From NCBI GenBank assembly GCA_002839285.1, contig PGXT01000001.1:6573-70572 (forward strand): DNA of 64,000 nucleotides. The letters run 5' to 3'. The position numbers and the translations under genes are program-made. The notes beneath the pieces are model-generated. The model saw nothing but the letters and a program-made list of their open reading frames with translations. It searched no databases and was not told where the DNA came from. Shown here piece after piece: positions 9,943 to 24,047 of the stretch. Position 1 is the first letter of the stretch, and every line of letters starts with the position of its first letter. The DNA is from Spirochaetae bacterium HGW-Spirochaetae-5 (GTDB lineage: Bacteria > Spirochaetota > UBA4802 > UBA5550).

Positions 9943-9999
9943 TATGTTTTTCAGGAGGATAAATTTAATTTCCCAAGTACAGAACTTGAAAACAGAATT

Positions 10000-11078: not shown

Positions 11079-11112
11079 TACCGCATAACGCCAGATACGG
11101 CGTTATGCGGTA
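11079..11112. repeat. perfect palindrome TACCGCATAACGCC-AGATAC-GGCGTTATGCGGTA (14-bp arms, 6-nt centre)
   Basis: Read directly from the sequence. Lies just beyond the late-operon terminator near the left end of the element. Contains CATAA/TTATG half-sites. Confidence 0.5.
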
Positions 11113-11132
11113 AAAAACACCTTCAAAAAAAC

Positions 11133-11166
11133 GAAAAAAAAGCCCCGGTCATTAATACCGGGGCTT
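11133..11166 (-). terminator. rho-independent terminator for the minus-strand late operon (AGCCCCGGT-loop-ACCGGGGCT plus T8 on the minus strand)
   Basis: GC hairpin preceded on the plus strand by an A-run (a T-run on the minus strand), immediately downstream of the last late gene (11234). Confidence 0.6.
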
Positions 11167-11233
11167 TGAAAAATCAATTCATCAAGAATTGATTTTTTTG
11201 CTTTCCGGAGGCTTCGCGTGGATCTATTTTCCG

Positions 11234-11656: not shown

Positions 11657-12299
11657 GCAACGCCCCGCCGATTAAATATATTTTATCAATACCCGGCTTT
11701 ATAATTTCGTTGTAAAACTCTTTAGCCTCTGCATTCAATTTCTGTCCGGCTTTTTTCGAAGCTATAAACGGATTATTAAGAGATATATATAAAGATGCCA
11801 TTAAAGCAGGCTTTTTAAATACTTCATACCAGATCAAAATATTATTTACAATCGGAGCAACGGGGATAATTGCAATTTCATAATCAGCAGCATCAATTGA
11901 CTTTTCAGGTAAAAAAATTCCCCCGTGTTTTTTTAAGACCTCGATACCTTCCAGCCCCTCTTCTCTTAAATCAAAATGAATATGTCTGTTAAAGCTGGAT
12001 AGATAAACAGTATTAGCATAAGCCCTCAACTCATTAAAAAGCCATACATTCATGTACAGAGGATAGACCGTGATATCAATAGCTTTCCCGCCTGAGTGAT
12101 TCGCGTTCCTTTTTGTCCGGTCTTGTGAGGTTACGATAATATCAGTGACATTCTCGTAAAAATATGATTTTTTTTTTGCATCATTGAATATGTCGGCCAG
12201 TAAGGTATATAAACCATGACCGGCATCATTTAAGCGAGACCCGTTTTTAAAATTCGGAGTCTGGAAGATGAAAAAATCTTTATCATACTTTATTGACAT
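11592..12299 (-). CDS. peptidase M15 (VanY / L-alanoyl-D-glutamate peptidase-like) endolysin candidate with C-terminal TM segment
   Basis: Zinc-ligand motifs HSGGKAIDI (H-x6-D) and HIHFD (H-x-H) characteristic of M15 peptidases. C-terminal hydrophobic helix IYLIGGALLAFMLL. Confidence 0.65.
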   Translation of the reverse strand: MSIKYDKDFFIFQTPNFKNGSRLNDAGHGLYTLLADIFNDAKKKSYFYENVTDIIVTSQDRTKRNANHSGGKAIDITVYPLYMNVWLFNELRAYANTVYLSSFNRHIHFDLREEGLEGIEVLKKHGGIFLPEKSIDAADYEIAIIPVAPIVNNILIWYEVFKKPALMASLYISLNNPFIASKKAGQKLNAEAKEFYNEIIKPGIDKIYLIGGALLAFMLLKNSGGKSVVIYKEKH

Positions 12300-12756
12300 T
12301 TTCTATTAACCACTTCGCCGGGTCTGTGTGTTTGTTGTTTATCATAACTTCAAAGTGTAAATGCTCCCCCATGGAAAAGCCATAATTTCCAATAGTGCCG
12401 ACCTTCCCCCCTTCAAGTATTATGTCGCCTACGGAGAGACCTTTTAACGGGGCTATATGCTTAAATACGAAAGTTACATCAGGATTATCGGAGCTGTGAG
12501 CGATAACATACGGAGTCCAGGCACGCCCCAGAGGGACAGTATTATCAATTTCAAACTTACCCCTGACAAGCTTAAATCTGCAAGGGTATTCACTGTCAAC
12601 GTCAAGGATTCTATCGACTGTCATATCGCACGGAGCAATAGCCGTTTTATTTTTACCTGTGAAATCAATTCCATAATGAAAAACAGGTTTTCTCCCCGGC
12701 AGTGTTCGCATCCCGTACGGGGAAGTTATTTTTTTGTTGTCAACCGGATATCTCAT
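12283..12756 (-). CDS. peptidase M23 (LytM-type) peptidoglycan endopeptidase
   Basis: M23 motifs HYGIDF (H-x3-D) and GEHLHFEV (H-x-H). 157 aa, single domain. Confidence 0.8.
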   Translation of the reverse strand: MRYPVDNKKITSPYGMRTLPGRKPVFHYGIDFTGKNKTAIAPCDMTVDRILDVDSEYPCRFKLVRGKFEIDNTVPLGRAWTPYVIAHSSDNPDVTFVFKHIAPLKGLSVGDIILEGGKVGTIGNYGFSMGEHLHFEVMINNKHTDPAKWLIENVNKV

Positions 12757-13010
12757 ATCTCATCAACCTTTATTTCTTCGGCTTCCAGTGCTGCCAGTTC
12801 ATCAAGTTTATATTGTATTGCCTGAGCGCATAGATCAGGGATAGATTTTAAAACTCTGAATCTCTCAATATTTTGAGGTGAATATATATCCGATTCACGG
12901 AGAACCAGAAAGTCACCATTTGCAAGCTGTAAGACAAAACAGGTTATATCCGTTTTATCTTCGGTTAATTCAATATCAATTATTGTTGTATCGTAAAATA
13001 GAATATTCAT
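12753..13010 (-). CDS. hypothetical protein (85 aa)
   Basis: ORF packed tightly between neighbouring genes with 4-nt overlaps on both sides. No recognisable motif. Confidence 0.35.
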   Translation of the reverse strand: MNILFYDTTIIDIELTEDKTDITCFVLQLANGDFLVLRESDIYSPQNIERFRVLKSIPDLCAQAIQYKLDELAALEAEEIKVDEI

Positions 13011-13976
13011 TTAAACCACCCTTTGGAAAATAAAAGAAAAGGGGGCTACACTTGAATTTCTTCCTCTACAATACCATGTCCCAGAAAGAGCCACCCCATT
13101 ATCATACTGAAAATTATATTCATATATATTATCTGTTGAATACTTTACTATAAAACTTTGATTTCTTGCTACATCGCCATTCATCATGTTAGCAATATCT
13201 CTAGCTGAAATAATAGAGCCGATAGGGAAATTTATATTAGAATTGACTGAACCAGTATAAACTTTATTTTCTTTTAAAAACCCTGCTGCAACTGCTGACG
13301 CATCTTTTAAAAAGCCCTCAGTTTCTGCAGATGCTTCTTTCAGAAAGCCGAGAGCAATTAAAGCAGCTTCATCTAAACCGGCAGAGGATTTAAAAAAAAA
13401 ACCGGATAGATTGAAGTTGAATATATATTGCAGTTTGCAGAAATCCTTTGCATTCATCAAATTTACAGTACCGGAAGCAGTGACAAGAAAATAAATTGAA
13501 ACATCACTGGAGACAATCCCCTTTGCTGTCTTGATTGCTGCAAGGTCAAGAGCAATAGACTTTTTTGCGTAATCCTGAGAGAGGTTTAAATTCTCCCCCT
13601 CTGCCGTGTCCTGATAGAATGATTCTGAGAGTTTGAAAAGTCCCGCGCTTATAAAGTCAGCTTCTGCGAGATTCTCATCACATGAAGTAAAAGCATTAAA
13701 AACAGTGTCCGCACCTATCCAAGCAGAGATTTTAATATCTCCCTTAAATCTGCTTATAACCTGATTAATGTAATCAGATTCAACCACCGTCAAGAAATTG
13801 TTTAATGATACTTCAAGCCCTGTTAGTTCAGTGACTTTCAATCTGCAAGCCATAACCTTTTTCGGGATATTCGCAAAATTATTTTTGCCGGATAGATTAA
13901 AGTCTAAACCCTGCATATTAAAATTAAATCCCGTTAATGTCTTAAAGTTCTGAAAGTCCTGAATTATAACAGCCAC
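13011..13976 (-). CDS. hypothetical structural protein candidate (321 aa; spike or major capsid candidate)
   Basis: Largest late-operon protein. Beta-rich N- and C-terminal regions and an internal triple repeat GFLKEASA / GFLKDASA / GFLKENK. No enzymatic motif. Confidence 0.4.
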   Translation of the reverse strand: MAVIIQDFQNFKTLTGFNFNMQGLDFNLSGKNNFANIPKKVMACRLKVTELTGLEVSLNNFLTVVESDYINQVISRFKGDIKISAWIGADTVFNAFTSCDENLAEADFISAGLFKLSESFYQDTAEGENLNLSQDYAKKSIALDLAAIKTAKGIVSSDVSIYFLVTASGTVNLMNAKDFCKLQYIFNFNLSGFFFKSSAGLDEAALIALGFLKEASAETEGFLKDASAVAAGFLKENKVYTGSVNSNINFPIGSIISARDIANMMNGDVARNQSFIVKYSTDNIYEYNFQYDNGVALSGTWYCRGRNSSVAPFSFIFQRVV

Positions 13977-14002
13977 TTGACCCGCCCCAAATTTTTATTT
14001 AT

Positions 14003-14344
14003 TTATACAAGCAGCTCAAAAACCAGAACCGCTACAATATCCGAGCTGTGCGAATTATTAAATTCATAATTATACTTTGCGCCCGGCTCCCCGAGTTTTA
14101 CCTTTTCGGGGAAAAGGTCTGTTAAAAGCTCAACCCCGATATTATCAAAAACCTTTTCACTTGTTGTACTGTTAAGCATTGTCATGTTTAATTTTCCCCT
14201 TAAACTTGACAGATCTGTGAGACAAACAACCTCACCTATTACGGGGTTTTTTCCCCTGATAAGCTGGTCAAGATCAAAAGTTCCAGCCAAGCCGGTTGAA
14301 CCGGCTGGAACGGTAATTGAAACTTGTGAATATTTCTTACCCAT
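14003..14344 (-). CDS. hypothetical protein (113 aa)
   Basis: ORF in the late operon. No recognisable motif. Confidence 0.35.
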   Translation of the reverse strand: MGKKYSQVSITVPAGSTGLAGTFDLDQLIRGKNPVIGEVVCLTDLSSLRGKLNMTMLNSTTSEKVFDNIGVELLTDLFPEKVKLGEPGAKYNYEFNNSHSSDIVAVLVFELLV

Positions 14345-14368
14345 AATTTAAACCCTATATCCCTTAAA

Positions 14369-14917
14369 TTATGCTATCTGCTGGGGCTTGTAAAGAATCC
14401 CTTTCATTACAACAACCAGCTCCGCATTTGCTTCAAGGATTGGAAGATTCACATTGAAATCAAAGTTTTCATCTTCTATCCATTCTCCGCCATCTATAAA
14501 AAGAGGCTGGAACGCTCTTACCGGCTGGGGCTGTGATGTACTTGTCGCCACCGTTACCGCTGAGTCAAAAAACTCTGCAAGGGAACCGCCCGCGATCTCT
14601 CTATCTGCAATAGATAGCTGAAAGTTACCGAGAGTGAGCTTCGAAAGGATTGCCGGGGTAACTGCTGCACCTGTTGAAAGCTTGTAAATAAATCCGACTT
14701 TCTGAACGTTGAAAATCTGATCTACCGGGAAGCGGGGACCCTGATTTTTCCAGTTTGTTTTACTACCTTTTGAGCCGAATTTCCCATCCATTTCAAGAAA
14801 CGCTTTTGCATCTACAACGGGGGTTGACGCATTACCGTCAATGGTATAATAAAAGGATTTTCCTATCCCGTCCATCAACTTTGAATCACCTTTTTTATTT
14901 GTTACTTTTCTTAACAT
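14369..14917 (-). CDS. hypothetical protein (182 aa), beta-rich; candidate jelly-roll capsid protein
   Basis: ORF in the late operon with alternating hydrophobic beta-strand-like composition. Fold is not verifiable from sequence alone. Confidence 0.35.
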   Translation of the reverse strand: MLRKVTNKKGDSKLMDGIGKSFYYTIDGNASTPVVDAKAFLEMDGKFGSKGSKTNWKNQGPRFPVDQIFNVQKVGFIYKLSTGAAVTPAILSKLTLGNFQLSIADREIAGGSLAEFFDSAVTVATSTSQPQPVRAFQPLFIDGGEWIEDENFDFNVNLPILEANAELVVVMKGILYKPQQIA

Positions 14918-14957
14918 TTGAATAACTCCGAATTTTTTATTTTAAAGTTTTAAGGTA

Positions 14958-15428
14958 TTAAAACCTTGTTACATCAGTTTCAACCGCTGCACGGTTTACA
15001 CCATTTCCCGCCGGGGGAATATATGAAGCCTGCTTTGTCTGTCCGTTTGGCATCTTAACCGGAACAGATACACCGCTTACCGCATTCATAGAACCGGAAC
15101 CGCCGAGCGCGTTAATGTATGTAATCAGAGTCGCTTTTTTCTTCGGGTCAGTCTCTTTCCCTGCAATCTCTGTTAATATGTCGCGAATCATCGCCACACC
15201 ACCGACCGCCATACCACCGACCGCCAGAAACTCCGCGACCTTCTTATCTTTTACAAGAAGACTTGCCAGAACCGCCGGAGCTACCATTGTCAAAAGGTTT
15301 GACAGATATTTATTGCTGATTCTTCCAGCAAGTAAAAACTGGACAATAACCGGAGCAAATGCGCCGACTGCCTTGTCTTTATCTGCAAAATTTTTAACGC
15401 TACCCATTAAATCTAATTTTTTAGCCAT
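14958..15428 (-). CDS. membrane-associated protein (156 aa; Ala/Gly/Val-rich hydrophobic segments)
   Basis: Three hydrophobic stretches (AFAPVIVQFLLAG, LLTMVAPAVLASLLV, FLAVGGMAVGGVAMI). ORF in the late operon. Confidence 0.4.
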   Translation of the reverse strand: MAKKLDLMGSVKNFADKDKAVGAFAPVIVQFLLAGRISNKYLSNLLTMVAPAVLASLLVKDKKVAEFLAVGGMAVGGVAMIRDILTEIAGKETDPKKKATLITYINALGGSGSMNAVSGVSVPVKMPNGQTKQASYIPPAGNGVNRAAVETDVTRF

Positions 15429-15431
15429 CGT

Positions 15432-16076
15432 TTATTTCCTCTTCTTTTTATTGCTTAATAACAAAACCCCGGCAGTTAAACCGCCGATAATTAACAGCGG
15501 ATTCATACCGGAGTTTTTCTTATTATCGTTTTCAATTTCAATTTCAATTTCATCATTGTATATTGTTTCTTTCTCTTCAGGCGGTAAAACCGGAGTAATA
15601 GGCTGCACCTGATAAATATTTGCCTCTGCGCTCTGTGTTGTTTTATAATTATAAATTATACCGATAAGACTATCAGTTCTAAATTTATATATTGCCTGTA
15701 AAATCTGAAGAACTCCATTTCTACTGAAAGCCGTTTCGCCCTGGTCTGTCTTTGTCTTCATAATCTCAGTTATGAAACTTTCTGAATTTTCCGGGGTTAC
15801 TGAATACCCTCTTAAGATTGATTCTTTCAGGTATGATAATATTATATGCTGCGCGTACCACCATGATACAACCGTGACGCCGTTTCTCTTAAGTAAATAC
15901 TGAACATGGCTTGTAAGCGCGAACAGAACCGCCATTGACGCCGTTTTTGTTTTTCCGTCTGACAGTCCGAAAGTAAGAACTTTACTAACTGCAAGTTTCG
16001 AATTAAAATCCGGGTCATTATTTGAAAACCAGTTTCTGAGACTGGTAATATCTATATATTTTCTATCAATTGTCAT
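15432..16076 (-). CDS. C-terminally membrane-anchored protein with a degenerate P-loop-like motif (214 aa)
   Basis: GLSDGKTKT resembles Walker A but is one residue short. C-terminal TM helix LLIIGGLTAGVLLL followed by KKKRK. Size is in the range of the small packaging ATPases of membrane-containing phages, but ATPase activity is not supported by motif alone. Confidence 0.4.
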   Translation of the reverse strand: MTIDRKYIDITSLRNWFSNNDPDFNSKLAVSKVLTFGLSDGKTKTASMAVLFALTSHVQYLLKRNGVTVVSWWYAQHIILSYLKESILRGYSVTPENSESFITEIMKTKTDQGETAFSRNGVLQILQAIYKFRTDSLIGIIYNYKTTQSAEANIYQVQPITPVLPPEEKETIYNDEIEIEIENDNKKNSGMNPLLIIGGLTAGVLLLSNKKKRK

Positions 16077-16080
16077 AATC

Positions 16081-16602
16081 TTAATACCATCCCAGAAACG
16101 CGAAATACTGATTAATCATTGCCTTAATATCATCAACAACCGCCATTCCCTGCTCTGGGATATCCCCGGCGTATAACTCATAATAAGCCTTTGCCGTTTC
16201 TATTACTGCCATAGTGGAAATATAAACATTCTTTCCGCTTGAATACATATCCCCAACAAGAGGCGCATCTTCTGCCAGCTTATCCAGTGCCGACAATAAA
16301 GGAGCGGAAGCATCGACAAAGGCTTTTATTCCTGTGTCTGCGTAAACGTCAGATACTGTCTCTTTTATGTCGCTGTATTGTTCCTGTACGCTCTGCGCTG
16401 CATCGACTGTCAACTCTACGGCGTTTTGAACCATGTCCATAATCTCTGACTGATAAGCAGCGGACGCCACATCCTGAACAGTTTCAACTGCATTCTGTGC
16501 AACATCAACAGCACTCTGGACGGCGCCAGTAACAGCAGAAACAGCATTTGTAATAATTCGCGGGGGACTCCAACCCCAGCCGACAACATCACTTTGTTTC
16601 AT
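16081..16602 (-). CDS. hypothetical Ala/Val/Gln-rich protein (173 aa)
   Basis: Repetitive S/AVxxAVQxAV segments. No TM or enzymatic motif. Confidence 0.35.
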   Translation of the reverse strand: MKQSDVVGWGWSPPRIITNAVSAVTGAVQSAVDVAQNAVETVQDVASAAYQSEIMDMVQNAVELTVDAAQSVQEQYSDIKETVSDVYADTGIKAFVDASAPLLSALDKLAEDAPLVGDMYSSGKNVYISTMAVIETAKAYYELYAGDIPEQGMAVVDDIKAMINQYFAFLGWY

Positions 16603-16604
16603 CT

Positions 16605-16799
16605 TTAACAGTGACCTTTTTCCCTATGTGATAAAGTCGAGGAAGCTTTAATGCAAATTTCAAACTCAAAGAGATTTGAGAAAAAAACTTTACAGTGACG
16701 GAAAAAGTCAGCAGTATGTATCTTATGACAATTTCTTTTATTGTCTCTGTTTTGTTTTCGCTCATCCTTAACCCCTTTTAAATTTTGCAATTTCTTCAT
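16605..16799 (-). CDS. small hypothetical ORF (64 aa), doubtful
   Basis: Fills a 165-nt gap between neighbouring genes. Basic, no motif. Confidence 0.15.
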   Translation of the reverse strand: MKKLQNLKGVKDERKQNRDNKRNCHKIHTADFFRHCKVFFSNLFEFEICIKASSTLSHREKGHC

Positions 16800-17169
16800 C
16801 AGGAAACCTTTCCCCCAGCTTTAAAAAATCATAACTATTATCATAGTCTATGAATTTTGAACCGTCCCACACTCTACAAAAAACATGATAACGGTTTACA
16901 TCTGTTCTTAAGTACACCACTTCAAAATCAATTTCATTCTGCATTAAGTAGATCATTGTGACTTTTGTTTTTTCGCCACAATCCCCACCATATCTGATTA
17001 TGTCGCTTGGGTCTCTGGAAACATCTTCGAAAACCTGCTCTTTAAATATGACTCCCTGCGACATAAAATTAAAAAAGTCTGTTAAGCTCTTTTCGATCAA
17101 AAAGGCGGGGAGCTTTTGAAAACCCGCAAAGAAAAACAGCTGATCTGTATAATGCTGAAAACTGAACAT
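16768..17169 (-). CDS. transglutaminase-like/papain-fold cysteine peptidase candidate (133 aa)
   Basis: GDCGEKT followed downstream by YHVF and D residues, compatible with a Cys-His-Asp transglutaminase-like core. Weak, motif-level only. Confidence 0.3.
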   Translation of the reverse strand: MFSFQHYTDQLFFFAGFQKLPAFLIEKSLTDFFNFMSQGVIFKEQVFEDVSRDPSDIIRYGGDCGEKTKVTMIYLMQNEIDFEVVYLRTDVNRYHVFCRVWDGSKFIDYDNSYDFLKLGERFPDEEIAKFKRG

Positions 17170-17175
17170 AGACTT

Positions 17176-17337
17176 TATCTGTACTTTTTAATCATTGTTT
17201 CTTTTTTCTTTTTGTCCGAATCAATTTCATTACAGCGTTTATTCCAGTCTTTTAAACGCTCTTCAAACTTTTTCCATGATTCAAGGCTTGCGCTTGCCTT
17301 TGGTTTTTTTGGTCTTTTAGGTTTTTTAATAGCCATT
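17176..17337 (-). CDS. small highly basic protein (53 aa; MAIKKPKRPKKPK...), candidate DNA-binding or genome-condensing protein
   Basis: ORF translated by hand from the minus strand; absent from the track because it is shorter than 60 aa. About 35 percent Lys/Arg. Confidence 0.3.
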
Positions 17338-17563
17338 ACTTACCCGCCTTTTTTATAATCATAATCAAAGGAATTGAGAGAATGACAAGTTTAACCGGAA
17401 CAAAACCGAATATCTTATATTCGTAAAGTGCTTTAACTGCGTCCGGTAAAACTCCCTGCTCTTTAAATTCCTTAACTAATTCTTTTTCGTCTAAAAACAA
17501 ACTCATTCTTTGACCTGTTGTATTTTTGATACATGTATCAATTATACAACAATTTGTCAACAA
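17336..17563 (-). CDS. small membrane protein (C-terminal TM; probable start at the internal Met giving about 56 aa)
   Basis: C-terminal helix LVILSIPLIMII. First gene after the internal terminator. Confidence 0.3.
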   Translation of the reverse strand: MLTNCCIIDTCIKNTTGQRMSLFLDEKELVKEFKEQGVLPDAVKALYEYKIFGFVPVKLVILSIPLIMIIKKAGK

Positions 17564-17598
17564 AAAAACCGCCTTTTTAGGGGCGGTTTTAAAAAAAG
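17561..17598 (-). terminator. rho-independent (bidirectional-looking) terminator separating the early and late transcription units of the element
   Basis: AAAACCGCC-loop-GGCGGTTTT hairpin flanked by an A-run and a T-run, immediately downstream of the lipoprotein gene. Confidence 0.6.
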
Positions 17599-17633
17599 TT
17601 GTATTTTATTAAATTATAAAATAATTAGTTAAT

Positions 17634-17957
17634 TTACTTCTTTTCGAGTGTGTAAGTTTTTTCCGCTGGATAATCCATCCACCAGAGGTAGGAAAAAATA
17701 TGAATTATATTAAATTCACTCTTTTGTAAATTGGTCTGAAAGTCTTTATACTCATCTTTCTGAAGTTTGACCTCTGTTGACATCCACAAAGGCTTACTGT
17801 CAGTGTGAGCATATGGAGTCACGCCTTTAAGCTCCCCATCAATAAAAATTTTAGCTTCGCCGGGGACACTCTGAATTTTTACAGTGCTTGAACAACCGAC
17901 CGCAAAGATTAAAAGACTTAATACAACCGCGAACATCTTAAATTTTTTCATGTGCAT
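17634..17957 (-). CDS. lipoprotein (107 aa)
   Basis: Signal peptide with lipobox AVGC (MKKFKMFAVVLSLLIFAVGCSS). Confidence 0.5.
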   Translation of the reverse strand: MHMKKFKMFAVVLSLLIFAVGCSSTVKIQSVPGEAKIFIDGELKGVTPYAHTDSKPLWMSTEVKLQKDEYKDFQTNLQKSEFNIIHIFSYLWWMDYPAEKTYTLEKK

Positions 17958-18005
17958 AACCTCTCTTTTATTTGATATAAAAATTAATTTATATGCTCTT
18001 TTTTG

Positions 18006-18215
18006 TCAATGTAAAATCTTTTTCTGCTTCTTAATATAGGCATAAGCTTTTAAGGCTATCCGGCCTATGACTTCAATATTTTTTTTCCGTTCCTGCTGCT
18101 TCCATTTTTTTATATTGTTAAGGTCACGACCTAGAATAAAACCAAACACAGCAGACACCATACAGACCAATAAAAATAATAAATTAAACATCACTCCCCG
18201 CCTGCATGAAATCAA
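18006..18215 (-). CDS. small single-TM protein with basic C-terminus (holin-like or virion membrane protein candidate)
   Basis: TM helix FNLLFLLVCMVSAVFGFILG followed by a Lys-rich tail. Confidence 0.3.
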   Translation of the reverse strand: MISCRRGVMFNLLFLLVCMVSAVFGFILGRDLNNIKKWKQQERKKNIEVIGRIALKAYAYIKKQKKILH

Positions 18216-18402
18216 ACTCCATGCTCTTAATGTCTTTAGAGTCTATATTACTTTTAATTTTCTTAAGTAATACCCGGCTTAATTTATGCAGTGCTTCAGC
18301 TTCTTTTTTTATTGCTTCAGCTGCTCCCGGATTCATTTTTAAAAGTCCAAAGGACTCCATCATATTTTTCTGAGTGCTTAAAAAATCGTTTTTAACTGAC
18401 AT
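18184..18402 (-). CDS. hypothetical protein (72 aa)
   Basis: ORF in the early unit. No motif. Confidence 0.3.
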   Translation of the reverse strand: MSVKNDFLSTQKNMMESFGLLKMNPGAAEAIKKEAEALHKLSRVLLKKIKSNIDSKDIKSMEFDFMQAGSDV

Positions 18403-18403
18403 A

Positions 18404-19018
18404 TTAGTTCCCCCATTGTTCTGCCATTGCTTTAGATATACCAGGCGGGAAGAGACTTCTTTCTTTCCCTTTCCCTTTCCCTAATTTACCGAATTTAGAA
18501 TATTTACTTAATCCCGATTTTGTTTTTTTAGAATTATAAAATAGATATTCCGGTATAACTTCTGAAGAGGGAAATAACCCCCCCTCCGGAAACCAGTTTA
18601 AAAACGGTAAATTTTTAAGCCATAAACAAGTCTTCTTTGAATAATTATCTCCGAAAAAATAAGGCTGTATAATTTGATCAGGTTTTTTAAATTTTGTACT
18701 CAGAACACCGACCGGATTTTCAATTGCAATTTTAGGGATATTACAATCCCATAATTTTTTTACAAAAGAAATAGCTTCTTTTTGCTGTTCTATTTTGTTT
18801 TTAAAATGTGCTGCCCCTGAAACTGCTAAATGAGTACACGGAGGAAACGCGATCATCATATCCCATTTATCATTTATTATATCCATGACATCGCCCTGGT
18901 AATGTAAACCAGGCTTTTCTGTTGGTAATAAATCACATGATAAAACATAATGACCAAGTTTTTTAAATTCATCTCTGACGGCTCCGGAATATTCACATGC
19001 AACCAGTATCCGCATCAA
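18404..19018 (-). CDS. miniature DNA (cytosine-5)-methyltransferase-like protein (204 aa) with a divergent motif I and almost no target-recognition domain
   Basis: Collinear C5-MTase motifs: motif I variant ILVACEYSGAVRDEF in place of LFxGxGG; motif IV FPPCTHLAVSGA (PC catalytic dipeptide); motif VI IAIENPVGVL (ENV); motif VIII-like YSKKTCLWL; C-terminal QWGN (motif X-like, compare QFGNSV). Confidence 0.5.
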   Translation of the reverse strand: MMRILVACEYSGAVRDEFKKLGHYVLSCDLLPTEKPGLHYQGDVMDIINDKWDMMIAFPPCTHLAVSGAAHFKNKIEQQKEAISFVKKLWDCNIPKIAIENPVGVLSTKFKKPDQIIQPYFFGDNYSKKTCLWLKNLPFLNWFPEGGLFPSSEVIPEYLFYNSKKTKSGLSKYSKFGKLGKGKGKERSLFPPGISKAMAEQWGN

Positions 19019-19290
19019 GCCCCCCTCTGAACGTCAATGTCTTTTGTCAGTGTGTTATATATTTCTCTAATCTCCGCGGGCGTCTTTACAGCTTTATTTT
19101 CAACGTGTAAAGCACTGTCATTTTTTAACATTCCTTCCCCTTCAACGTCTATAAAATCTATACCGTCAAATTTTGAGACAGTAAACTGAAAAGGAATTTC
19201 ATCAATCCGCTTTTTCTCTACGCCTTTTTTTATTAAATATACTTGTATCGCTATTTCAAATTCTTTAACAGTCCCTATAAAACAGATCAT
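19015..19290 (-). CDS. hypothetical protein (91 aa)
   Basis: ORF between the Rep and MTase-like genes with 4-nt overlaps at both ends. Confidence 0.35.
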   Translation of the reverse strand: MICFIGTVKEFEIAIQVYLIKKGVEKKRIDEIPFQFTVSKFDGIDFIDVEGEGMLKNDSALHVENKAVKTPAEIREIYNTLTKDIDVQRGA

Positions 19291-20372
19291 TATTTTTTAT
19301 CCTCCGGTTTTTTATATAATTCGACGTCTTGAATATCCGCGCCGTTGTATTGGTTTCCCCTGAAAAGTTGATTTTTAACGCCGTCCGACAGTACCCGGAA
19401 GCTCTTGACGACATCAGAGTCGTCAAGCTCCGGGAATCGGAAGGTTTTAACAGCTTCATAGCTCCAGAAATGTGTTAGTTCCCGTTTATGTTTAAGCAAG
19501 TGTGCTTCTTCTATAACAAGGGAGAAGAAGCACCGATCTCGACAATCCCCGCAAAATCCATCGTAACCGCTCGGACAGTCGACAGGGCTTGTTTGCACTT
19601 CCCCGACAACCCCCCGAGTCCTTCCACTGGAATATCCTCTGGATGCTCTAAACGCTTTTTTGTTGTGTTTGATAAGTGAATATAAACCGATTATTTTTTT
19701 AAGTTCTTCATCGGTAAGAGCTGCTCCGGCCTTCGCTTTTTGATAAATTGCCTTAACCCCGTTGAAACCTTTGGCCACATATTTAAAAATGTAATAGCTT
19801 GCCCGTGTACTGTAGCAAGCCTCTACACTGGTTATATGTTTCCATTTGCTGTTAATACGGTCTTTTAATTCAGGGTCTGCAATCTCTGCGAATGGCTTTG
19901 TCTTTTTTGTGTATTTGTTATATCTTCTACGCATAACAAATTTAACGGGGTTTTTGAGAGTGATTAAAATGTGAGCATGTGCAACGCCTTTTTTCGTTGC
20001 TTCAAGCGTAACAATATAATCGGTCATCTCGATATAACTGTCACGCCTGAGAGCATCAAAAAAATATTTTGAATCTTTCCCGAATTGCTCCCAGCTCTCA
20101 AAAGTGTCGGGATAAGTCAAGACAACATGAATTAAATTTGACATTGAGTTCTCAGTGTCAATATTTGTTTTAGCTTCAAGCATCTTTTCAATCTTCCAGA
20201 CTCGACCAGATACCCGGCTATCATGTGCAACATTACCCCGGCGCGGAGCAAGCCCGACAAATTCATTATTAAATTCTATGTAAAACTCCTTTTTGTAATG
20301 GAGATCAAAGAAATTAATGACTTCATAATCGAGATAATTTGTTGCTTTTTTTGCTTGACTTCTATCGCTCAA
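19290..20372 (-). CDS. rolling-circle replication initiator, HUH endonuclease superfamily I (phiX174 gpA / Microviridae VP4 / PM2 P12-like), with C-terminal Cys cluster
   Basis: Motif 1 VVLTYPDT, motif 2 HAHILITL (HUH), motif 3 YYIFKYVAKG (two catalytic Tyr spaced as in phiX174 YVAKYVNK). C-terminal CPSGYDGFCGDCRDRC resembles a zinc ribbon. Confidence 0.8.
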   Translation of the reverse strand: MSDRSQAKKATNYLDYEVINFFDLHYKKEFYIEFNNEFVGLAPRRGNVAHDSRVSGRVWKIEKMLEAKTNIDTENSMSNLIHVVLTYPDTFESWEQFGKDSKYFFDALRRDSYIEMTDYIVTLEATKKGVAHAHILITLKNPVKFVMRRRYNKYTKKTKPFAEIADPELKDRINSKWKHITSVEACYSTRASYYIFKYVAKGFNGVKAIYQKAKAGAALTDEELKKIIGLYSLIKHNKKAFRASRGYSSGRTRGVVGEVQTSPVDCPSGYDGFCGDCRDRCFFSLVIEEAHLLKHKRELTHFWSYEAVKTFRFPELDDSDVVKSFRVLSDGVKNQLFRGNQYNGADIQDVELYKKPEDKK

Positions 20373-20456
20373 TTCGGTAGTTTCCTTTTAATTGAATACA
20401 ACAAACCCGCCCCAAATAACGGGTTTTGTTTTCGGTAATTATTAAGAAATGACATT

Positions 20457-20468
20457 TTAAAACGGGAT
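20457..20468. repeat. 12-bp direct repeat TTAAAACGGGAT, right copy
   Basis: Identical to 9931..9942. Sits 85 bp upstream of the Rep start codon. Confidence 0.35.
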
Positions 20469-20485
20469 ATTCTCCCGCTTTTTTT

Positions 20486-20689
20486 TTATTTTGGTAATTT
20501 ACTTACGATGTCAGTCCATTTGATTTTACATTCTTCTCTCGTACCGGAGATAAAAACCTGCTGAACTATCCCCTCTAGTTGAATTGTAAAAAATGAACCA
20601 GTGTTGTCTTTTTTGTCTGTGATTGCAGACATAAAAATGATTTTAGCGGGATTGAAAACCCCATTTTCAGTGACTATAAGATTTGACAT
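20486..20689 (-). CDS. hypothetical small protein (67 aa)
   Basis: ORF between the element and ispF. No motif. Confidence 0.25.
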   Translation of the reverse strand: MSNLIVTENGVFNPAKIIFMSAITDKKDNTGSFFTIQLEGIVQQVFISGTREECKIKWTDIVSKLPK

Positions 20690-20845
20690 TTGAGACCTCT
20701 TTTTATTTTTTTTATTTTAACCTCTCGGAAGAGTGGTTAATCTTTTTTATTTTGCCGGGAGAGTTTTACTACCTCCCCCGGCAAGTTTGCCCTTTTCCCA
20801 CTGTACACGCCCCCCAGCCTGCACAGTGATAAAGGGGCAAGCCCT

Positions 20846-21019
20846 TTATTTTATTTCCTGAAGGTAATTATGAATGCTACGGATTTTTGCGTCACAGTTT
20901 AAATAAATTTCATCATTTCCAGGATTAAGAGTTGAGCAGGCTTTCAGCTCATCAATTACGACCTGTAATGATTTTTCTATTTTTTCGATCTGCTTGATAA
21001 CGTCGGAGGTGTTTGACAT
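20846..21019 (-). CDS. small protein (57 aa, MSNTSDVIKQIEKIEKSLQVVIDELKACSTLNPGNDEIYLNCDAKIRSIHNYLQEIK) downstream of ispF
   Basis: Hand-translated ORF; under 60 aa so missing from the track. Good AGGAG Shine-Dalgarno 6 nt upstream of the ATG. Confidence 0.35.
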   Translation of the reverse strand: MSNTSDVIKQIEKIEKSLQVVIDELKACSTLNPGNDEIYLNCDAKIRSIHNYLQEIK

Positions 21020-21107
21020 GGTAAACTCCTTTTAATATTAAAATTAATTTGCTTAATATTTAATAGAAAAAAGCTATTAGAATAAGATATATTATGTCTC
21101 CGCTGTA

Positions 21108-21614
21108 TTAGTTAAGACACAGAGCAGGATCAAAATAAAGAAGTGAAACAGTGTAGACAGCTATCCCCTCACCACGGCCGGTGAATCCGAGTTTTTCAGT
21201 AGTTTTACCTTTAATACCGATAGCAGCCGGTAAGAGTAAGCCATCCATTGCATCAGATATACTCTTTTTCATTTCAGTTATGTACGGGGAGATTTTAGGA
21301 TTATCACATATTACAACTGAATCGGTATTTATAACAGAAAAACCGTTGTTTATAAGTTTTTTATGAACCTCTTTTAAAAGCATCAGACTGCTGATATCTT
21401 TATATGCAGGATCGGTGTCGGGAAATAATTGTCCGATATCACCGATATTGGCAGGACTTAAAAAAGAATCTATAATTGAATGAACTAGAACATCCGCATC
21501 GGAGTGCCCCTGGAGACCCAGATGATGATCGATTTTTACTCCACCCAGAATAAGATCACGTCCATGAACCAGTGCATGAACATCAAATCCGTTTCCTATC
21601 CTGTAGTTTATCAT
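21108..21614 (-). CDS. ispF: 2-C-methyl-D-erythritol 2,4-cyclodiphosphate synthase
   Basis: Conserved GNGFDVHAL and HSDADVLVHS motifs. 168 aa. Confidence 0.9.
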   Translation of the reverse strand: MINYRIGNGFDVHALVHGRDLILGGVKIDHHLGLQGHSDADVLVHSIIDSFLSPANIGDIGQLFPDTDPAYKDISSLMLLKEVHKKLINNGFSVINTDSVVICDNPKISPYITEMKKSISDAMDGLLLPAAIGIKGKTTEKLGFTGRGEGIAVYTVSLLYFDPALCLN

Positions 21615-22077: not shown

Positions 22078-23307
22078 TCAATGAGAAAAATCTATATCTA
22101 TCAAAATCATTCTGGGATAAACTTTACCAAGATATTCGTTGTTTTCAAGTTTAAAAATCATATCCAGATTTTTTTTTGTTTTATAGAATATACTCATTTT
22201 TTCGAACATATTCCATCCTATCGCCTGAATATTTCCGTTTAACTGATACTTGCCATGAGCTCCTGAGCTTCCGAAAGTATTAAAACTCTCAATTTTAACA
22301 TTTTTTACAGCGAAAACAGGTTCTTCATTACTTTTCCCGAAAGGTTCAAGTATAAATATACTCTTTATAAAATTTGAGCTGATATCATTTATTTCGATAA
22401 CAGAGTCCACATGAATTGTCATTTCAGGAATAAAATCATCTGAAATGGCGTTATTTATTACGGAGGCTATCTGGTTAATTCTGCCAATTTCAGCGGTAAA
22501 ACCGAATGCCTGGGCATGTCCCCCTACTCTTTCAAACAAATGAGAAGCGCCGGCAGTATACTTGAAAAAATCGAAATTCCCGGAACTCCTGGCCGAACCT
22601 TTCACTATTCCGTTTTTGTCAGAACCGGTAGCAATTATAACCGGTTTTTTTATATCATCGGCAATACGGTTTGCAATCAACCCGGCTAGACCATCAATAA
22701 TCTCTTCATGCATATAGAAAAAAATATTATCATTAATTATCGCCCTGGAATAATCCTCACTGATCTTTTCAATGATATCATTAACCATTTTTTTTCTATC
22801 TTCATTTATCTTCTGTATTGAATTAACTATCTCAGCGGTCCTGTCTGCACTATCTTCAAGGAAAAAATCAACAGTCATACCGGATTCACCCATACGGCCC
22901 GGAGCATTTAAAAGCGGAGCGATGTTCCAGCTGATATATTTAGAAGTCGCCTTATTTTTCCCTGTTAATGATAAAATCCCCCTGTGGCCCCTGCCGTTAT
23001 TTATCATGGAAAGGCCATACTTTACCAGCTGTCTGTTCTCGCCATGAAGGGGCATAATATCTGCAATGGTACCGATGGTAACAAGTACAACATACTCCTG
23101 AAGTACTGCCATGATTTTCGATGAACTTCTGAGCTGAAGTTCTATAAATAATTTTAAATAAAGTTTAAACTCACTTTTAGAATTATACGCATTTATTCTG
23201 AATTCCCTAGAAAGAATATCCAGCATGGTTTTGTTATTTTCAAAATTTTTATCAGAAACAGATTCCGCAATTTTTTTAAAATCTGTTATAACTATTCCAT
23301 TATGCAT
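22078..23307 (-). CDS. recJ: single-stranded-DNA exonuclease RecJ, C-terminal portion (DHHA1 domain), in a different frame from the N-terminal portion
   Basis: GGHAQAFGF (the GGGH motif of DHHA1). This frame stays open upstream as far as 23382, overlapping the end of the N-terminal ORF. Confidence 0.65.
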   Translation of the reverse strand: MHNGIVITDFKKIAESVSDKNFENNKTMLDILSREFRINAYNSKSEFKLYLKLFIELQLRSSSKIMAVLQEYVVLVTIGTIADIMPLHGENRQLVKYGLSMINNGRGHRGILSLTGKNKATSKYISWNIAPLLNAPGRMGESGMTVDFFLEDSADRTAEIVNSIQKINEDRKKMVNDIIEKISEDYSRAIINDNIFFYMHEEIIDGLAGLIANRIADDIKKPVIIATGSDKNGIVKGSARSSGNFDFFKYTAGASHLFERVGGHAQAFGFTAEIGRINQIASVINNAISDDFIPEMTIHVDSVIEINDISSNFIKSIFILEPFGKSNEEPVFAVKNVKIESFNTFGSSGAHGKYQLNGNIQAIGWNMFEKMSIFYKTKKNLDMIFKLENNEYLGKVYPRMILIDIDFSH

Positions 23308-23366
23308 AGATTTAATTATTGACGCAAGGGTAAGACTCTCGCTGTTAAGCAGAACAATATAATCAG

Positions 23367-24047
23367 CTAAGATAAACCTTCTTTATAAACCAGTATAAAA
23401 TACCGGTTAAAACCGGAAGTGTAACTATATAAAAAAGCCTGCACAAATTTAAAAGCAACCCCGACCCCTGCAAGTTCTTTAAAGGGATAGAGACATTTAT
23501 GCTGCTTAGGATTTATAATTATTGCATCGGGTAGAATTGTATCAGGTTCATGATGATCTGTTACTATAAAATCGATCCCGTTTTCTCTGCCGTAATTTAT
23601 CTCTTCAGTATCCCGGATTCCTGAATCCACTGTTATAACAAGGGTTATTTTTTCCTTTATAAACTCATCTATTATGTCACATGTAAGGCCGTAACTCTCT
23701 TTTGCTTTAGGATAACGGATAAGGGGAATACATCCCGCCTTACAAAGAACACTGTGTATTAATGTTAAAGATGTTATACCATCGAGATCGGAATCTCCGA
23801 AGACTGCTACTTTTTCTGCAGTCAGAATTGCTGTTTTTAATCTGCCGATACCTTCATAAATACCATGTAATAAAAACGGGCTGTGGAGACTATTAAGTTC
23901 AGGGAAAATAAAATCCAGTATCTCCTCTTCCTGAGTCATCCCTCTGGATTGAAGAATCGAAATAATAATTTTATCAATACCCGTACTGGCAGATATGGAA
24001 GCAATCTTATGCAGATCCGGATCCGGTATAATCCATTCAGGTTTCAT
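23367..24047 (-). CDS. recJ: RecJ N-terminal portion (DHH phosphoesterase domain), ending at a frameshift-type junction
   Basis: DHH motifs AVFGDSDLDGITS, ITVDSGI and IVTDHHEP. The ORF terminates about 60 nt before the next ORF starts, and the two frames overlap. Confidence 0.65.
   Translation of the reverse strand: MKPEWIIPDPDLHKIASISASTGIDKIIISILQSRGMTQEEEILDFIFPELNSLHSPFLLHGIYEGIGRLKTAILTAEKVAVFGDSDLDGITSLTLIHSVLCKAGCIPLIRYPKAKESYGLTCDIIDEFIKEKITLVITVDSGIRDTEEINYGRENGIDFIVTDHHEPDTILPDAIIINPKQHKCLYPFKELAGVGVAFKFVQAFLYSYTSGFNRYFILVYKEGLS

Follow-up and report, generated by a model that had tools for sequence, protein, structure and literature searches.

A rolling-circle initiator gene in an 11.4-kb virus-like element at the dif site of a spirochaete genome

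The rep gene and its product

The window analysed here, which is the whole stretch of 64,000 nucleotides taken from the MAG of the spirochaete HGW-Spirochaetae-5, carries on its minus strand the gene rep (19290-20372), with a TTG start and a product of 360 aa predicted to be an HUH rolling-circle replication initiator. Read from the translation, VVLTYPDT, HAHILITL and YYIFKYVAK are all present, which confirms the coordinates and the LTYP, HUH and YxxKY motifs reported in the first-pass annotation. They follow one another as motif I (VLTYP, residues 84-88), motif II (HAHIL, 132-136) and motif III (YYIFKYVAK, 193-201), and all three are invariant in Rep and its four closest homologues. Across 25 Rep homologues, H132, H134, K197 and K201 never vary, while conservation of T86 and Y194 is 90% or more. 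Motif III reads Y194-IFK-Y198-VAK, a Y-x3-Y spacing of the superfamily I (two-tyrosine) type, with both tyrosines invariant in the close clade and only one motif III tyrosine in several distant homologues.

Rep matches Pfam PF23343 (REP_ORF2-G2P) with E = 1.4e-07 and 32.1 bits (gathering cut-off 27.8) over residues 83-202 and profile positions 4-98 of 99. The same profile is matched by 25 of the 25 Rep family members tested, a few of which also match Phage_GPA or Rep_1. Together with the match to phrog_3419 ("rolling circle DNA replication initiation", E = 3.2e-05), these scores place the similarity beyond chance. Since the best profile is PF23343, a phage and plasmid Rep family that takes its name from SpV4 ORF2 and inovirus G2P, and not one of IS91/ISCR transposases or relaxases, the earlier reading of the protein as a phage-type HUH rolling-circle Rep is borne out. 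By hhalign, the HUH core aligns with SpV4 ORF2 (86%), PM2 P12 (85%) and Pf3 gII (70%), with motifs I-III in register; phiX174 A reaches only 37% and the FLiP Rep 0.1%, and no FLiP ORF was matched by the Rep profiles. Of the comparisons named in the first-pass annotation, those with microviruses (through SpV4 ORF2) and with PM2 P12 are supported, that with phiX174 A is weaker, and the FLiP Rep is unrelated.

In SpV4 ORF2 and Pf3 gII, which belong to PF23343, motifs I, II (HUH) and III occur in the same order as in Rep, and the alignment is limited to a catalytic core of ~120 residues. Unlike these relatives, the window's Rep clade possesses an N-terminal KRGN region of its own and a 115-residue C-terminal region with a four-Cys cluster. 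The similarity to PM2 P12 and phiX174 gpA is very distant (14-20 bits by HMM), and Rep lacks a C-terminal extension comparable to that of the 646-aa PM2 P12. Rep_1, the family of the pC194/pUB110 plasmids, is matched by three Rep family members but not by the window's Rep, whose gene, unlike those plasmids, sits in a virus-like gene set.

In the AF2 model, the core of Rep (residues 55-245) has block pLDDT values of ~60-93, mostly above 75. HUH domains lead its PDB matches (the Reps of WDV, PCV2 and TYLCV, Helraiser, RepB and SIRV1 ORF119), each individually insignificant (all E at least 9e-3, low TM), and the C-terminal third of the model is unreliable. Searching PDB sequences with the Rep profile brought up nothing beyond a marginal match, to Helraiser (E = 0.72), and a k-mer-indexed protein search with the 25-sequence profile added one protein. 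Judged by its motifs and profile matches, Rep belongs to the HUH rolling-circle initiators and has a motif III of the Y-x3-Y form; its nicking activity is predicted.

The C-terminal cluster C-x7-C-x2-C-x3-C (residues 266-281), which the first-pass annotation took for a possible zinc ribbon, comprises Cys266, Cys274, Cys277 and Cys281, which are invariant in the four closest homologues and missing from more distant ones. It lies within residues 246-307, where the AlphaFold pLDDT falls below 50, and none of the family matches from the profile searches covers it. The codon of the fourth Cys forms the base of a DNA hairpin within rep, described below; the hairpin dictates this codon and the following FFSLVIEEAH.

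Boundaries, integration site and relatives of the element

The first-pass description of the gene as encoded in a chromosome is misleading, as rep belongs to a mobile element of 11.4 kb that is integrated at dif (9671-21100, minus strand; 11,411 bp from repeat to repeat). Its boundaries are the two exact copies of a 19-bp direct repeat (9671-9689 and 21082-21100; two matches against 0.09 expected by chance), and it sits between the convergent genes gcvH (9224-9646, plus strand) and ispF (21108-21614, minus strand). Comparison of attL, attR, attP and empty sites placed the junctions to the base. In the rep-proximal attL core (21082-21100, minus strand), GAGACATAATATATCTTAT, the XerD-side arm of the host and the central region are joined to a degenerate phage arm, TTATTCTAATA. 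At the other end, attR (9664-9691, minus strand) is a regenerated full dif, AAGAGACATAA-TATATC-TTATCGGAAGT, with the reverse complement ACTTCCGATAA-GATATA-TTATGTCTCTT. The attP type reads TATACAGACTA/GATATA/TTATGTCTCAT and the dif type ACTTCCGATAA-GATATA-TTATGTCTCAT; degeneration in attP affects the XerC side and leaves the XerD-side arm and the central region intact. TLCphi differs in which attP arm degenerates. On the phage side the flanks of attR are conserved from element to element, on the host side from host to host.

The 23-nt dif core occurs once in each of 58 species genomes, which are almost exclusively Spirochaetota; some 20 of them have it immediately between ispF and gcvH, uninterrupted by any insertion. 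Complete chromosomes with the 23-mer include OW818666.1, CAVSFD010000002.1 and CAXXHB010000003.1. One such ispF-dif-gcvH site, in L047, is empty, and its flanking genes share 90% amino-acid identity with those of the window. An ancestral chromosomal gene is ruled out because relatives carry these empty sites. Furthermore, GC skew flips sign and genes converge at the site. The 28-nt site, taken with the Spirochaetota consensus XerD arm, agrees at 24 of 28 positions with the dif predicted for Leptospira interrogans chromosome I (PMC3025954 supplement), and it is by homology to this computational prediction that the XerC and XerD arms were told apart. The junctions in turn give independent comparative support for the dif of Spirochaetota and Leptospirales.

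None of 20 scanned ORFs of the element matches an integrase or recombinase profile in Pfam or PHROGs. The host xerD (28499-29395, minus strand), identified by the NCBIfam XerD equivalog TIGR02225 (359.7 bits; cut-off 329.6), lies outside the element at a distance of 7 kb. Because an integrase is absent and the host XerD is nearby, the element is classed as an IMEX, with host XerD as its presumed recombinase partner, and its integration would depend on Xer. The IMEX class has been described for filamentous phages (PMC5357621; PMC12715192). Like the element, CTXphi, VGJphi, TLCphi and Xanthomonas Cf/XacF1 combine an RCR Rep with the lack of an integrase and with integration at dif, where one junction regenerates dif; the element differs from them in having neither a Zot-type assembly ATPase nor inovirus coat genes.

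Syntenic elements were found at L001, L003, L004, L005/L006 and L084, and a collinear block of ~10 genes is kept across six loci whose hosts have very different GC contents. The locus represents a complete element of small size that has seven or more related copies, of which one is circular. The circular copy is L004, a contig of 12,567 bp with one att site and no host genes, which is a circle of 12,440 bp because its ends overlap by 127 nt. The coverage of this contig is low, and a tandem prophage array could also yield it.

Beyond these relatives, tblastn of Rep and of the 182-aa and 321-aa proteins (see below) against 50,697 phage genomes (INPHARED) gave no matches, and neither did a search for the Rep locus in GTDB species genomes and IMG/VR. 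The 182-aa protein has no match in IMG/VR and one distant metagenome contig as a match (L007). In our literature searches such elements were not described in spirochaetes, and PF23343 was not mentioned. The element is a previously undescribed tailless virus-like element.

Structured DNA and gene content

Two hairpins come into question as the replication origin. The first-pass annotation had proposed the one upstream of rep (20402-20428, minus strand), in which AAACCCG and CGGGTTT enclose 10 nt, followed by a T-rich tract. This inverted repeat does exist, 30 nt before rep, with a stem that covaries across the window, L001 and L003. Its role as the origin nonetheless has only a slim chance of being correct. 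A counterpart is limited to these three closest elements, both L004 and L005 lacking one, its loop varies in sequence, and as ssDNA it folds only weakly (z = -2.5; 4 of 200 shuffles fold equally well). With its T-rich tract, it is more likely terminator- or attenuator-like than an origin.

The second hairpin, a candidate plus-strand origin, lies within rep (19502-19533, minus strand), where 19523-19533 pairs with 19502-19512 in a perfect 11-bp stem around the conserved 10-nt loop CCCTTGTTAT (19513-19522). Synonymous-codon identity is 93-98% at the hairpin against 46.5% gene-wide. In six homologues in which the hairpin is kept, 100% of cells are paired, with double compensatory changes in 7 of the 11 pairs. 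On four of five measures none of 500 shuffles reaches the observed value (further pair types: 8 of 500), and DNA folding gives z = -4.8 to -5.8. The loop resembles the phiX174 sequence CAACTTG/ATATT and the CTTG/AT nick site of phiX174 and pC194 (slashes mark cleavage), as well as the annotated cleavage-site region in PM2 gene XII, AAGCTTG/C. The window's clade differs from phiX174 and PM2 in that its motif occupies the loop of a covarying 11-bp hairpin, and this motif is CTTGTT, not CTTGAT. In distant homologues, the aligned dipeptide LD is always encoded by CTT-GAT. The nick-site-like hexamer CTTGAT lies within rep in every distant homologue examined, and in P0012 it is retained in another reading frame. 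The position of the nick, drawn from the likeness to phiX174 and pC194 only, would be after CTTG, between 19517 and 19516.

Being far better conserved than the upstream hairpin and carrying the CTTG motif, the intragenic hairpin appears to be the better origin candidate. An origin inside rep is also found for PM2 P12, phiX174 gpA and P2 gpA; a search of IMG/VR with the hairpin pattern returned no matches. Because the candidate origin is embedded in rep, DNA function and not protein function would account for part of the residue conservation in such Reps, namely for SLVI in the window's protein and LD in its relatives.

Further structured DNA lies upstream. A terminator-like hairpin (20458-20478, minus strand; GCGGGA-GAAT-ATCCCG, then TTTT), with equivalents in L001, L003, L004 and L005, follows a conserved 67-aa gene immediately upstream of rep (20486-20689, minus strand). 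By tblastn, homologues of the 67-aa gene occupy the same position in L001 (67% identity) and L003 (48%); none was detected in L004 or L005, where small genes of similar size take its place, and the gene has no Pfam or PHROG match. Beyond it lies a structured intergenic region (20717-20840, minus strand), in which helix P1 (TTGCCC/GGGCAA) encloses hairpin P2 with a G-rich loop and two more hairpins follow. Over its 36 pairs, 90.6% are paired in five elements, against 47-56% in slid controls; compensatory changes occur in 19 pairs, which none of 500 shuffles reaches, and the distant element L084 shows the same architecture. The structure is assigned to the coding-sense strand because the G-U/G-T pairs are invariant. 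An Rfam scan of the element, this region included, gave only sub-threshold chance hits, and the region may be a minus-strand origin, a packaging signal or an RNA element. The first small gene of the element (57 aa; 20846-21019, minus strand) is not conserved in sequence among relatives.

Downstream of rep, a DNA methyltransferase gene (18404-19018, minus strand; phrog_757, 8.3e-64) is cargo that occurs only in this copy and is absent from all related elements compared. It is followed by a core block (14958-17336, minus strand) kept across L001, L003, L004, L005 and L084, which encodes five proteins of 156 aa (membrane), 214 aa (with a TM segment at the C-terminus), 173 aa (helical), 133 aa and 53 aa (highly basic), none of them assigned to a Pfam or PHROG family. 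The next gene (14369-14917, minus strand) encodes a 182-aa protein with a predicted single jelly roll (AF2 pLDDT 74.5, pTM 0.72), a candidate major capsid protein. It has ten homologues, is present in all six related loci and, among the family's structural genes, is conserved most widely. The best PDB matches of the model are the SPV1 capsid, the PCV2/BFDV Cap, satellite-virus coats and the FLiP penton (TM 0.3-0.4), and its BFVD matches are mostly uncharacterised viral proteins together with several CRESS-virus capsid proteins. Jelly-roll matches are low overall (TM 0.3-0.56), and the fold also occurs in non-capsid proteins.

The adjoining gene (14003-14344, minus strand), conserved in related loci, encodes a 113-aa protein that is possibly a second capsid or penton protein. 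The 321-aa protein (13011-13976, minus strand) is a spike or receptor-binding candidate, with weak matches of its C-terminus to tail-protein PHROGs and a Pfam Collar domain in its homologues in L001 and L005. An endolysin-like M23 peptidase (12283-12756, minus strand) matches PF01551 (1.2e-10) and the endolysin family phrog_3578 (4.3e-32). The 235-aa protein encoded at 11592-12299 (minus strand), conserved in L001, L004 and L005, has a C-terminal hydrophobic segment. It may be a LAS-type peptidase, a reading made by eye from its H-x6-D and H-x-H motifs because no profile matches it. Nearly all element genes lie on one strand; the exception is a module at the rep-distal end (10000-11074, plus strand), comprising a 250-aa ORF and two small ORFs, which is a candidate for lysogeny or regulation. 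The 250-aa ORF is kept in L001, L004 and L005 and has no family match in Pfam or PHROGs. No Walker A motif or P-loop ATPase was found in any frame of the element.

A proposed cycle and its alternatives

We consider it probable that Rep initiates the replication of a temperate, tailless, virus-like element of 11.4 kb residing at dif of this MAG, with the following cycle. The circular ds form would carry an attP composed of a perfect dif XerD-side arm, the central region and a degenerate XerC-side arm. Recombination of attP with dif by host XerC/XerD would leave a crippled hybrid attL by ispF and a full dif (attR) by gcvH. Through its HUH metal site and Tyr194/Tyr198, Rep would nick the coding-sense strand in the loop of the intragenic hairpin, probably after CTTG, in the excised or the integrated copy, and thereby prime rolling-circle synthesis. 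The multi-hairpin intergenic region upstream probably serves the ss intermediate, as an origin for the complementary strand, as a packaging signal or as both. An icosahedral particle with a membrane is the plausible product of the downstream module, which supplies the basic 53-aa protein, the membrane proteins, the 182-aa jelly roll, the 113-aa protein, the spike and an M23 peptidase that may act in lysis or entry. A virion with this capsid architecture is what we infer, and the DNA packaged in it may be ssDNA.

The element might also be a corticovirus-like dsDNA phage, in which Rep amplifies a ds circle and dsDNA is packaged, as in PM2. PM2 P12 is among the best-aligning known Reps, the annotated PM2 cleavage site likewise falls inside its rep gene, the genome sizes are alike (11.4 kb and 10.1 kb), and the copy in the window carries a DNA methyltransferase. 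We nonetheless give this account a modest chance, as homologues of the PM2 double-jelly-roll P2 and of the P9 ATPase are missing, along with any Walker A motif, the strand-specific conserved hairpins with their invariant G-T pairs suggest a functional ss form, and one strand holds nearly all genes. A plasmid-like or satellite IMEX at dif, replicating by rolling circle with no virion of its own, would turn the "structural" genes into surface or envelope proteins or remnants. Its chance is small in our estimation, with points on either side. Neither Pfam nor PHROGs picked out a family of capsids, portals or packaging enzymes, a P-loop ATPase motif is lacking, the jelly-roll matches of the 182-aa protein are weak, the element proteins searched have no matches in IMG/VR or INPHARED, and distant Rep homologues are carried by small plasmids that can be mobilised, such as L078, a circle of 3.1 kb with Mob_Pre. 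On the other hand, the block shared collinearly by six loci despite the very different GC of their hosts holds the genes for the jelly roll, for the spike with its Collar domain and for the endolysin-like M23 peptidase, and to our knowledge FLiP-type ssDNA phages likewise have no recognisable packaging ATPase.

That Rep is a Y2 HUH transposase of the IS91/ISCR/Helitron type has a negligible chance. Helitron_like_N scores E = 0.013 and 16.1 bits against a cut-off of 28.9, and the Helraiser nuclease domain, the marginal sequence match mentioned above, ranks 10th by structure. The above-threshold match of Rep is PF23343, the element lacks both a helicase domain and Walker A, and the 11-12-kb unit is also found as a circle. 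We reject this identity because Helitron_like_N stays below its cut-off and because the element ends in dif-type repeats, one of which belongs to a regenerated full dif.

A prophage of four established families is likewise rejected, because their defining genes are absent. Microviridae would require an F-type capsid, for which there is no match and no ORF of capsid size (430-550 aa), and their genomes are 4-7 kb against 11.4 kb here. For Corticoviridae, neither a P2-type double jelly-roll MCP nor a match to the P9 FtsK/HerA-type ATPase was found, and for Inoviridae/Plectroviridae there is no match to Zot; Walker A is absent in both comparisons. Finnlakeviridae are rejected on the FLiP Rep result and on the lack of tblastn matches of the 182-aa and 321-aa proteins among the 50,697 phage genomes, the FLiP penton being only a weak fold match to the 182-aa protein.

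In lifestyle, the virus-like element favoured here would resemble PhiCjT23, FLiP and the Vibrio dif-type DJR prophages, which are tailless and temperate, measure 7-12 kb, lack an integrase, have dif-like flanks and use XerC/D (PMC9719478; PMC12715192). No protein similarity to PhiCjT23 or FLiP is detectable, and the PhiCjT23 Rep is of the Rep_trans type (PMC9719478). The capsid candidate of the element is a 182-aa single jelly roll in place of a double jelly roll of ~310 aa, and its host phylum is Spirochaetota. PhiCjT23 and FLiP have an RCR Rep, an ssDNA genome and an inner membrane, and are not known to have a packaging ATPase.

With more doubt than confidence, we further propose that these elements are prophages of a novel Spirochaetota phage family, temperate and icosahedral with a membrane in the virion, with a circular ssDNA genome, a capsid of the 182-aa single-jelly-roll protein (in place of a double jelly roll) perhaps together with the 113-aa protein, no packaging ATPase, an origin within rep and Xer-dependent lysogeny. 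Tailless and ssDNA temperate phages are badly under-sampled, and our literature search found none for Spirochaetota. If the proposal is true, the lineage falls outside Microviridae, Finnlakeviridae, Corticoviridae and Inoviridae, and it would bear on the kinship of single- and double-jelly-roll, ssDNA and dsDNA tailless phages.

Integration at dif

The rep gene does lie in a chromosome, as the first-pass annotation had stated, but it belongs to an element that is very probably integrated at dif. Between gcvH (plus strand) and ispF (minus strand), the region from 9.7 to 21.1 kb holds about 25 small genes, most of them unannotatable and almost all in minus-strand orientation, and an exact 19-bp direct repeat, GAGACATAATATATCTTAT, stands at 9671-9689 and 21082-21100 (two copies against 0.09 expected by chance). 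Collinear elements bearing the same repeat were found on related contigs: L001, integrated between the same ispF and gcvH; L005 and L006, where trkA and a hemerythrin gene flank the insertion; L003, a partial element; and L004, a 12,567-bp contig that lacks host genes and has one att copy, and whose terminal overlap of 127 nt makes it a 12,440-bp circle.

Each of 58 species-representative genomes, nearly all from Spirochaetota or Leptospirales, has exactly one copy of the 23-mer GACATAATATATCTTATCGGAAG, and in about 20 of these genomes the copy stands immediately between convergent ispF and gcvH, without any insertion. The relative L047 represents the empty site, since its ispF, 23-mer and gcvH are uninterrupted and the flanking genes are 90-91% identical to those of the window. 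The block conserved at the site reads cTAATGAGACATAA-TATATC-TTATCGGAAGTT, and its flanks are not conserved. In reverse complement, ACTTCCGATAA-GATATA-TTATGTCTCAT, the block agrees with the predicted dif of Leptospira interrogans chromosome I, ACTTCCGATAA-TACATA-TTATGTCCCTT (PMC3025954 supplement), at 24 of 28 positions, with an identical XerC arm. At this site GC skew switches sign and genes converge, and host xerD (28499-29395, minus strand; TIGR02225 equivalog) is only 7.4 kb away, an arrangement also present in L001.

The gcvH-side junction, attR (9664-9691), is a full dif whose outer flank, AAAGCTAAAGAGACATAA, is kept between elements and is therefore phage-derived; at the ispF-side junction, attL (21082-21100), host DNA is joined to variable phage sequence. 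The junctions are those expected of a dif x attP recombination in which the XerD-side arm and central region of attP are perfect and its XerC-side arm is degenerate. The element's scanned ORFs matched no integrase or recombinase profile of Pfam or PHROGs. Because its junctions are of the dif-recombination type and it has no such profile of its own, the element is classed among the mobile, integrating elements that exploit Xer (IMEX), and we infer that it uses Xer.

Several further observations touch the site and its surroundings. Host recJ (22078-24047, minus strand) appears split into two ORFs of 409 and 226 aa with a 59-nt gap between them, and a frameshift, decay to a pseudogene or a fault in the assembly could account for this; the syntenic recJ of L001 is a single ORF for a 687-aa RecJ. 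A more distant related element is integrated at about 5440-12876 of L084 (GCA_053578275.1, a 1.33-Mb contig), adjoining AATGAGACATAATATATG/GACCCGGAAGC and not near ispF, with identities of 35% for Rep, 31% for the 182-aa protein and 35% for the 214-aa protein. Single copies of the 23-nt dif core also turn up in MAGs labelled as Nitrospinota, Thermodesulfobacteriota and Bryobacteraceae and in one genome of Ureibacillus (L013, L045, L048, L062); these cases may stem from mis-binning, from convergence or from a dif type that the groups share. The 16-mer TGAGACATAATATATC, made up of the XerD arm and central region, is present in seven IMG/VR viral contigs of 5.8-100 kb (L071-L077), which encode none of the element's proteins and may be further elements associated with dif, or prophage calls taking in the host dif.

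The Rep protein and its lineage

The rep ORF (19290..20372, minus strand) opens with TTG and encodes 360 aa, entered at NCBI as a hypothetical protein of 'Spirochaetae bacterium HGW-Spirochaetae-5', in which the LTYP, HUH and YxxKY motifs (VVLTYPDT, HAHILITL, YYIFKYVAK) are all present in the order claimed. It is almost certainly an HUH rolling-circle initiator of the PF23343 family: it scores 32.1 bits against Pfam PF23343 (REP_ORF2-G2P; gathering threshold 27.8; E = 1.4e-07), and phrog_3419, 'rolling circle DNA replication initiation', also matches it. An exhaustive search of 5.8 billion proteins yielded four close homologues besides Rep itself (47-74% identity), and in their alignment with Rep the three motifs and C266, C274, C277 and C281 are invariant. 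The clade is rare: of 1.84 billion cluster representatives, all scanned with the five-sequence HMMER profile, just 78 matched at E < 1e-3, and 9 of these at E < 1e-10. A wider alignment retains an N-terminal K-R-G-N, motif I, Trp94, E..G..H.H and Y..K...K; the second tyrosine, Y198, is invariant within the close clade and absent from several distant members. Built on a six-sequence alignment, the AlphaFold model has a mean pLDDT of 59.9 and is confident for residues ~55-245 only, with pLDDT below 50 at residues 246-307; its best PDB matches are nearly all HUH nuclease domains, each weak (E >= 9e-3).

Kinship with IS91/ISCR transposases or conjugative relaxases would have told against this assignment. 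All 25 of the best family members matched PF23343, a few additionally matching Phage_GPA, Rep_1 or Gemini_AL1, and none of the 25 matched a relaxase or IS91 family in the profile scan. A transposase reading was rejected, its signals being all sub-threshold (Helitron_like_N, 16 bits; Helraiser, E = 0.72). With PF23343 above threshold and known phage Reps aligning, the assignment to the two-tyrosine HUH superfamily holds. When the family profile was compared with the ORFs of phiX174, PM2, SpV4, Pf3 and FLiP, HMMER singled out exactly the Reps of Pf3, PM2, phiX174 and SpV4, at 11-20 bits, and no FLiP ORF. Probabilities from hhalign were 86% for SpV4 ORF2, 85% for PM2 P12 and 70% for Pf3 gII, but 37% for phiX174 A and 0.1% for FLiP Rep, so that kinship is borne out for SpV4, PM2 and Pf3, less clearly for phiX174 A, and not for FLiP. 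Motifs I-III are in register with PM2 P12, the alignment inspected residue by residue.

Distant relatives of Rep are also found on small Mob-carrying circular plasmids, which makes the lineage one common to plasmids and viruses, as HUH Reps usually are. P0012, a homologue of 25% identity, is encoded on a ~3.1-kb circular replicon with a Mob_Pre relaxase (L078 and L079; L078 is a 3,214-bp contig with a terminal overlap of 127 nt), which is a small mobilisable RCR plasmid.

Candidate origin and conserved structures

The inverted repeat proposed as the origin is present at 20402-20428, but its folding beats shuffles only modestly (z = -2.5), a T-rich tract follows it, and it has no counterpart in L004 or L005. 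The origin of phiX174 lies inside the rep gene and the annotated PM2 cleavage site lies inside gene XII (sequence records). The P2 origin likewise lies within rep. The codons of rep were analysed on account of these three cases. In a codon alignment of five rep genes, synonymous-codon identity is 46.5% over the whole gene versus 93-98% across the codons for CRDRCFFSLVIEEAHL.

These considerations make it likely that the plus-strand origin would lie inside rep, at the hairpin 19533-19502 (minus strand), GTGCTTCTTCT-CCCTTGTTAT-AGAAGAAGCAC. The stem has diverged in sequence with pairing kept, the encoded amino acids being altered along with it: its 5' and 3' arms are GTGCTTCATGT and ACATGAAGCAC in L003, GTGCTACTTTG and CAAAGTAGCAC in L004, GTGCCTGAATT and AATTCAGGCAC in L005, and GTGCTTTAAGT and ACTTAAAGCAC in L082. 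All 66 pair cells of the six homologues are Watson-Crick, with double changes in 7 of 11 pairs; slid controls pair at 30-50%. On four of five measures the observed value was reached by 0/500 shuffles, and on the fifth, further pair types, by 8/500; the z-score for folding as DNA is -4.8 to -5.8. The loop is constant, C(C/T)CTTGTTA(T/C), resembling CAACTTG/ATATTAAT of phiX174 and a PM2 region with CTTGTTAT, 20 nt before the annotated AAGCTTG/C cleavage; the nick would probably fall after CTTG on the coding strand. The fourth Cys and FFSLVIEEAH are at least partly dictated by DNA; given this, and the pLDDT below 50 at residues 246-307, the zinc ribbon suggested for the four-Cys cluster stays a candidate reading.

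Distant rep genes at loci L081, L083, L084, L085 and L078 were examined for CTTGAT. The conserved 'LD' past motif III is CTT-GAT in 4/4 of the genes examined (P0008, P0009, P0010, P0014), all lacking the Cys cluster, and P0012 keeps the hexamer in a different frame (gcC TTG ATt = A-L-I), its single occurrence in L078 lying inside rep. The constant codons and the out-of-frame copy argue for constraint at the nucleotide level; at its simplest, CTTGAT may be a nick site of the pC194/phiX type that sits within rep throughout the family. In mode of action, including this candidate embedded origin, Rep is likened to the initiators of phiX174, P2 and PM2.

A multi-hairpin intergenic region (20717-20840, minus strand) lies ~150 nt upstream of a conserved 67-aa gene. 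Across five elements its 36 pairs reach 90.6% pairing versus 47-56% in slid controls, compensatory changes occur in 19 of them (reached by 0/500 shuffles), and the distant element of L084 shows the same architecture. Two pairs are G-U/G-T in all five sequences, which places the structure on the coding-sense, CTTG-bearing strand. Rfam gave no match. Read most economically, the region would serve an ssDNA form as complementary-strand origin or packaging signal; a structured RNA leader would be a less economical reading.

Gene content and nature of the element

Besides Rep, the family core comprises a very basic protein of 53 aa, three proteins of 133, 214 and 156 aa among which hydrophobic segments recur, and a pair of 182 and 113 aa. 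The extremely lysine/arginine-rich 53-aa protein (17175-17336, minus strand) is kept in the five relatives covering the region, has no family match in Pfam and PHROG scans, and recalls the DNA-condensing J protein of microviruses. The element also encodes an M23 peptidase (PF01551; phrog_3578 endolysin), a PEGA-domain lipoprotein and a 321-aa protein with weak tail-fibre-like matches and a Collar domain in homologues. A DNA methyltransferase (phrog_757, E = 8.3e-64) occurs in this copy only; together with two small ORFs (18006-19018, minus strand) it is absent from L001, L003, L004, L005 and L084, and the three look like cargo.

The 182-aa protein is the most widely conserved, occurring in 6/6 related loci, among them L007, a high-GC contig from activated sludge. 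AlphaFold, given 11 sequences, models it as a beta-sandwich with one helix (pLDDT 74.5, pTM 0.72). The best PDB matches of the model are single-jelly-roll capsid proteins, namely SPV1 (E = 5e-4), the Cap proteins of PCV2 and BFDV, the coat proteins of STMV and SPMV, and the FLiP penton; in BFVD most matches are viral proteins of uncharacterised function, with several capsids of CRESS viruses besides. TM-scores reach just 0.3-0.56. A search of every frame of the element found no Walker A motif, and hence no packaging ATPase, Zot-like protein or helicase. Rep, the 182-aa and the 321-aa proteins had no tblastn match in 50,697 phage genomes, and neither Rep nor the 182-aa protein matched IMG/VR. 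A virion-forming phage with a jelly-roll capsid is the somewhat favoured reading, and the odds that its genome is ssDNA appear even.

Held against the defining genes of Microviridae, Inoviridae, Corticoviridae and Finnlakeviridae, the element falls in none of them. In lifestyle it fits the IMEX phages that lack an integrase, a class already known. Its closest analogues are PhiCjT23, a temperate phage of Flavobacterium that contains lipid, has an ssDNA genome and forms prophages with dif on their flanks (PMC9719478), and, in Vibrio, the 'dif-type DJR phages' (PMC12715192). The original finding is thus real and its family assignment essentially right, but the object of interest exceeds the gene: it is an undescribed dif-integrating and probably viral element of Spirochaetota, with a candidate intragenic origin hairpin and a conserved intergenic structure. 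Since HUH rolling-circle replication, IMEX lysogeny and tailless jelly-roll phages are all known, it is not categorically new; it offers a well-delimited case, open to testing, of a possibly new family of phages.
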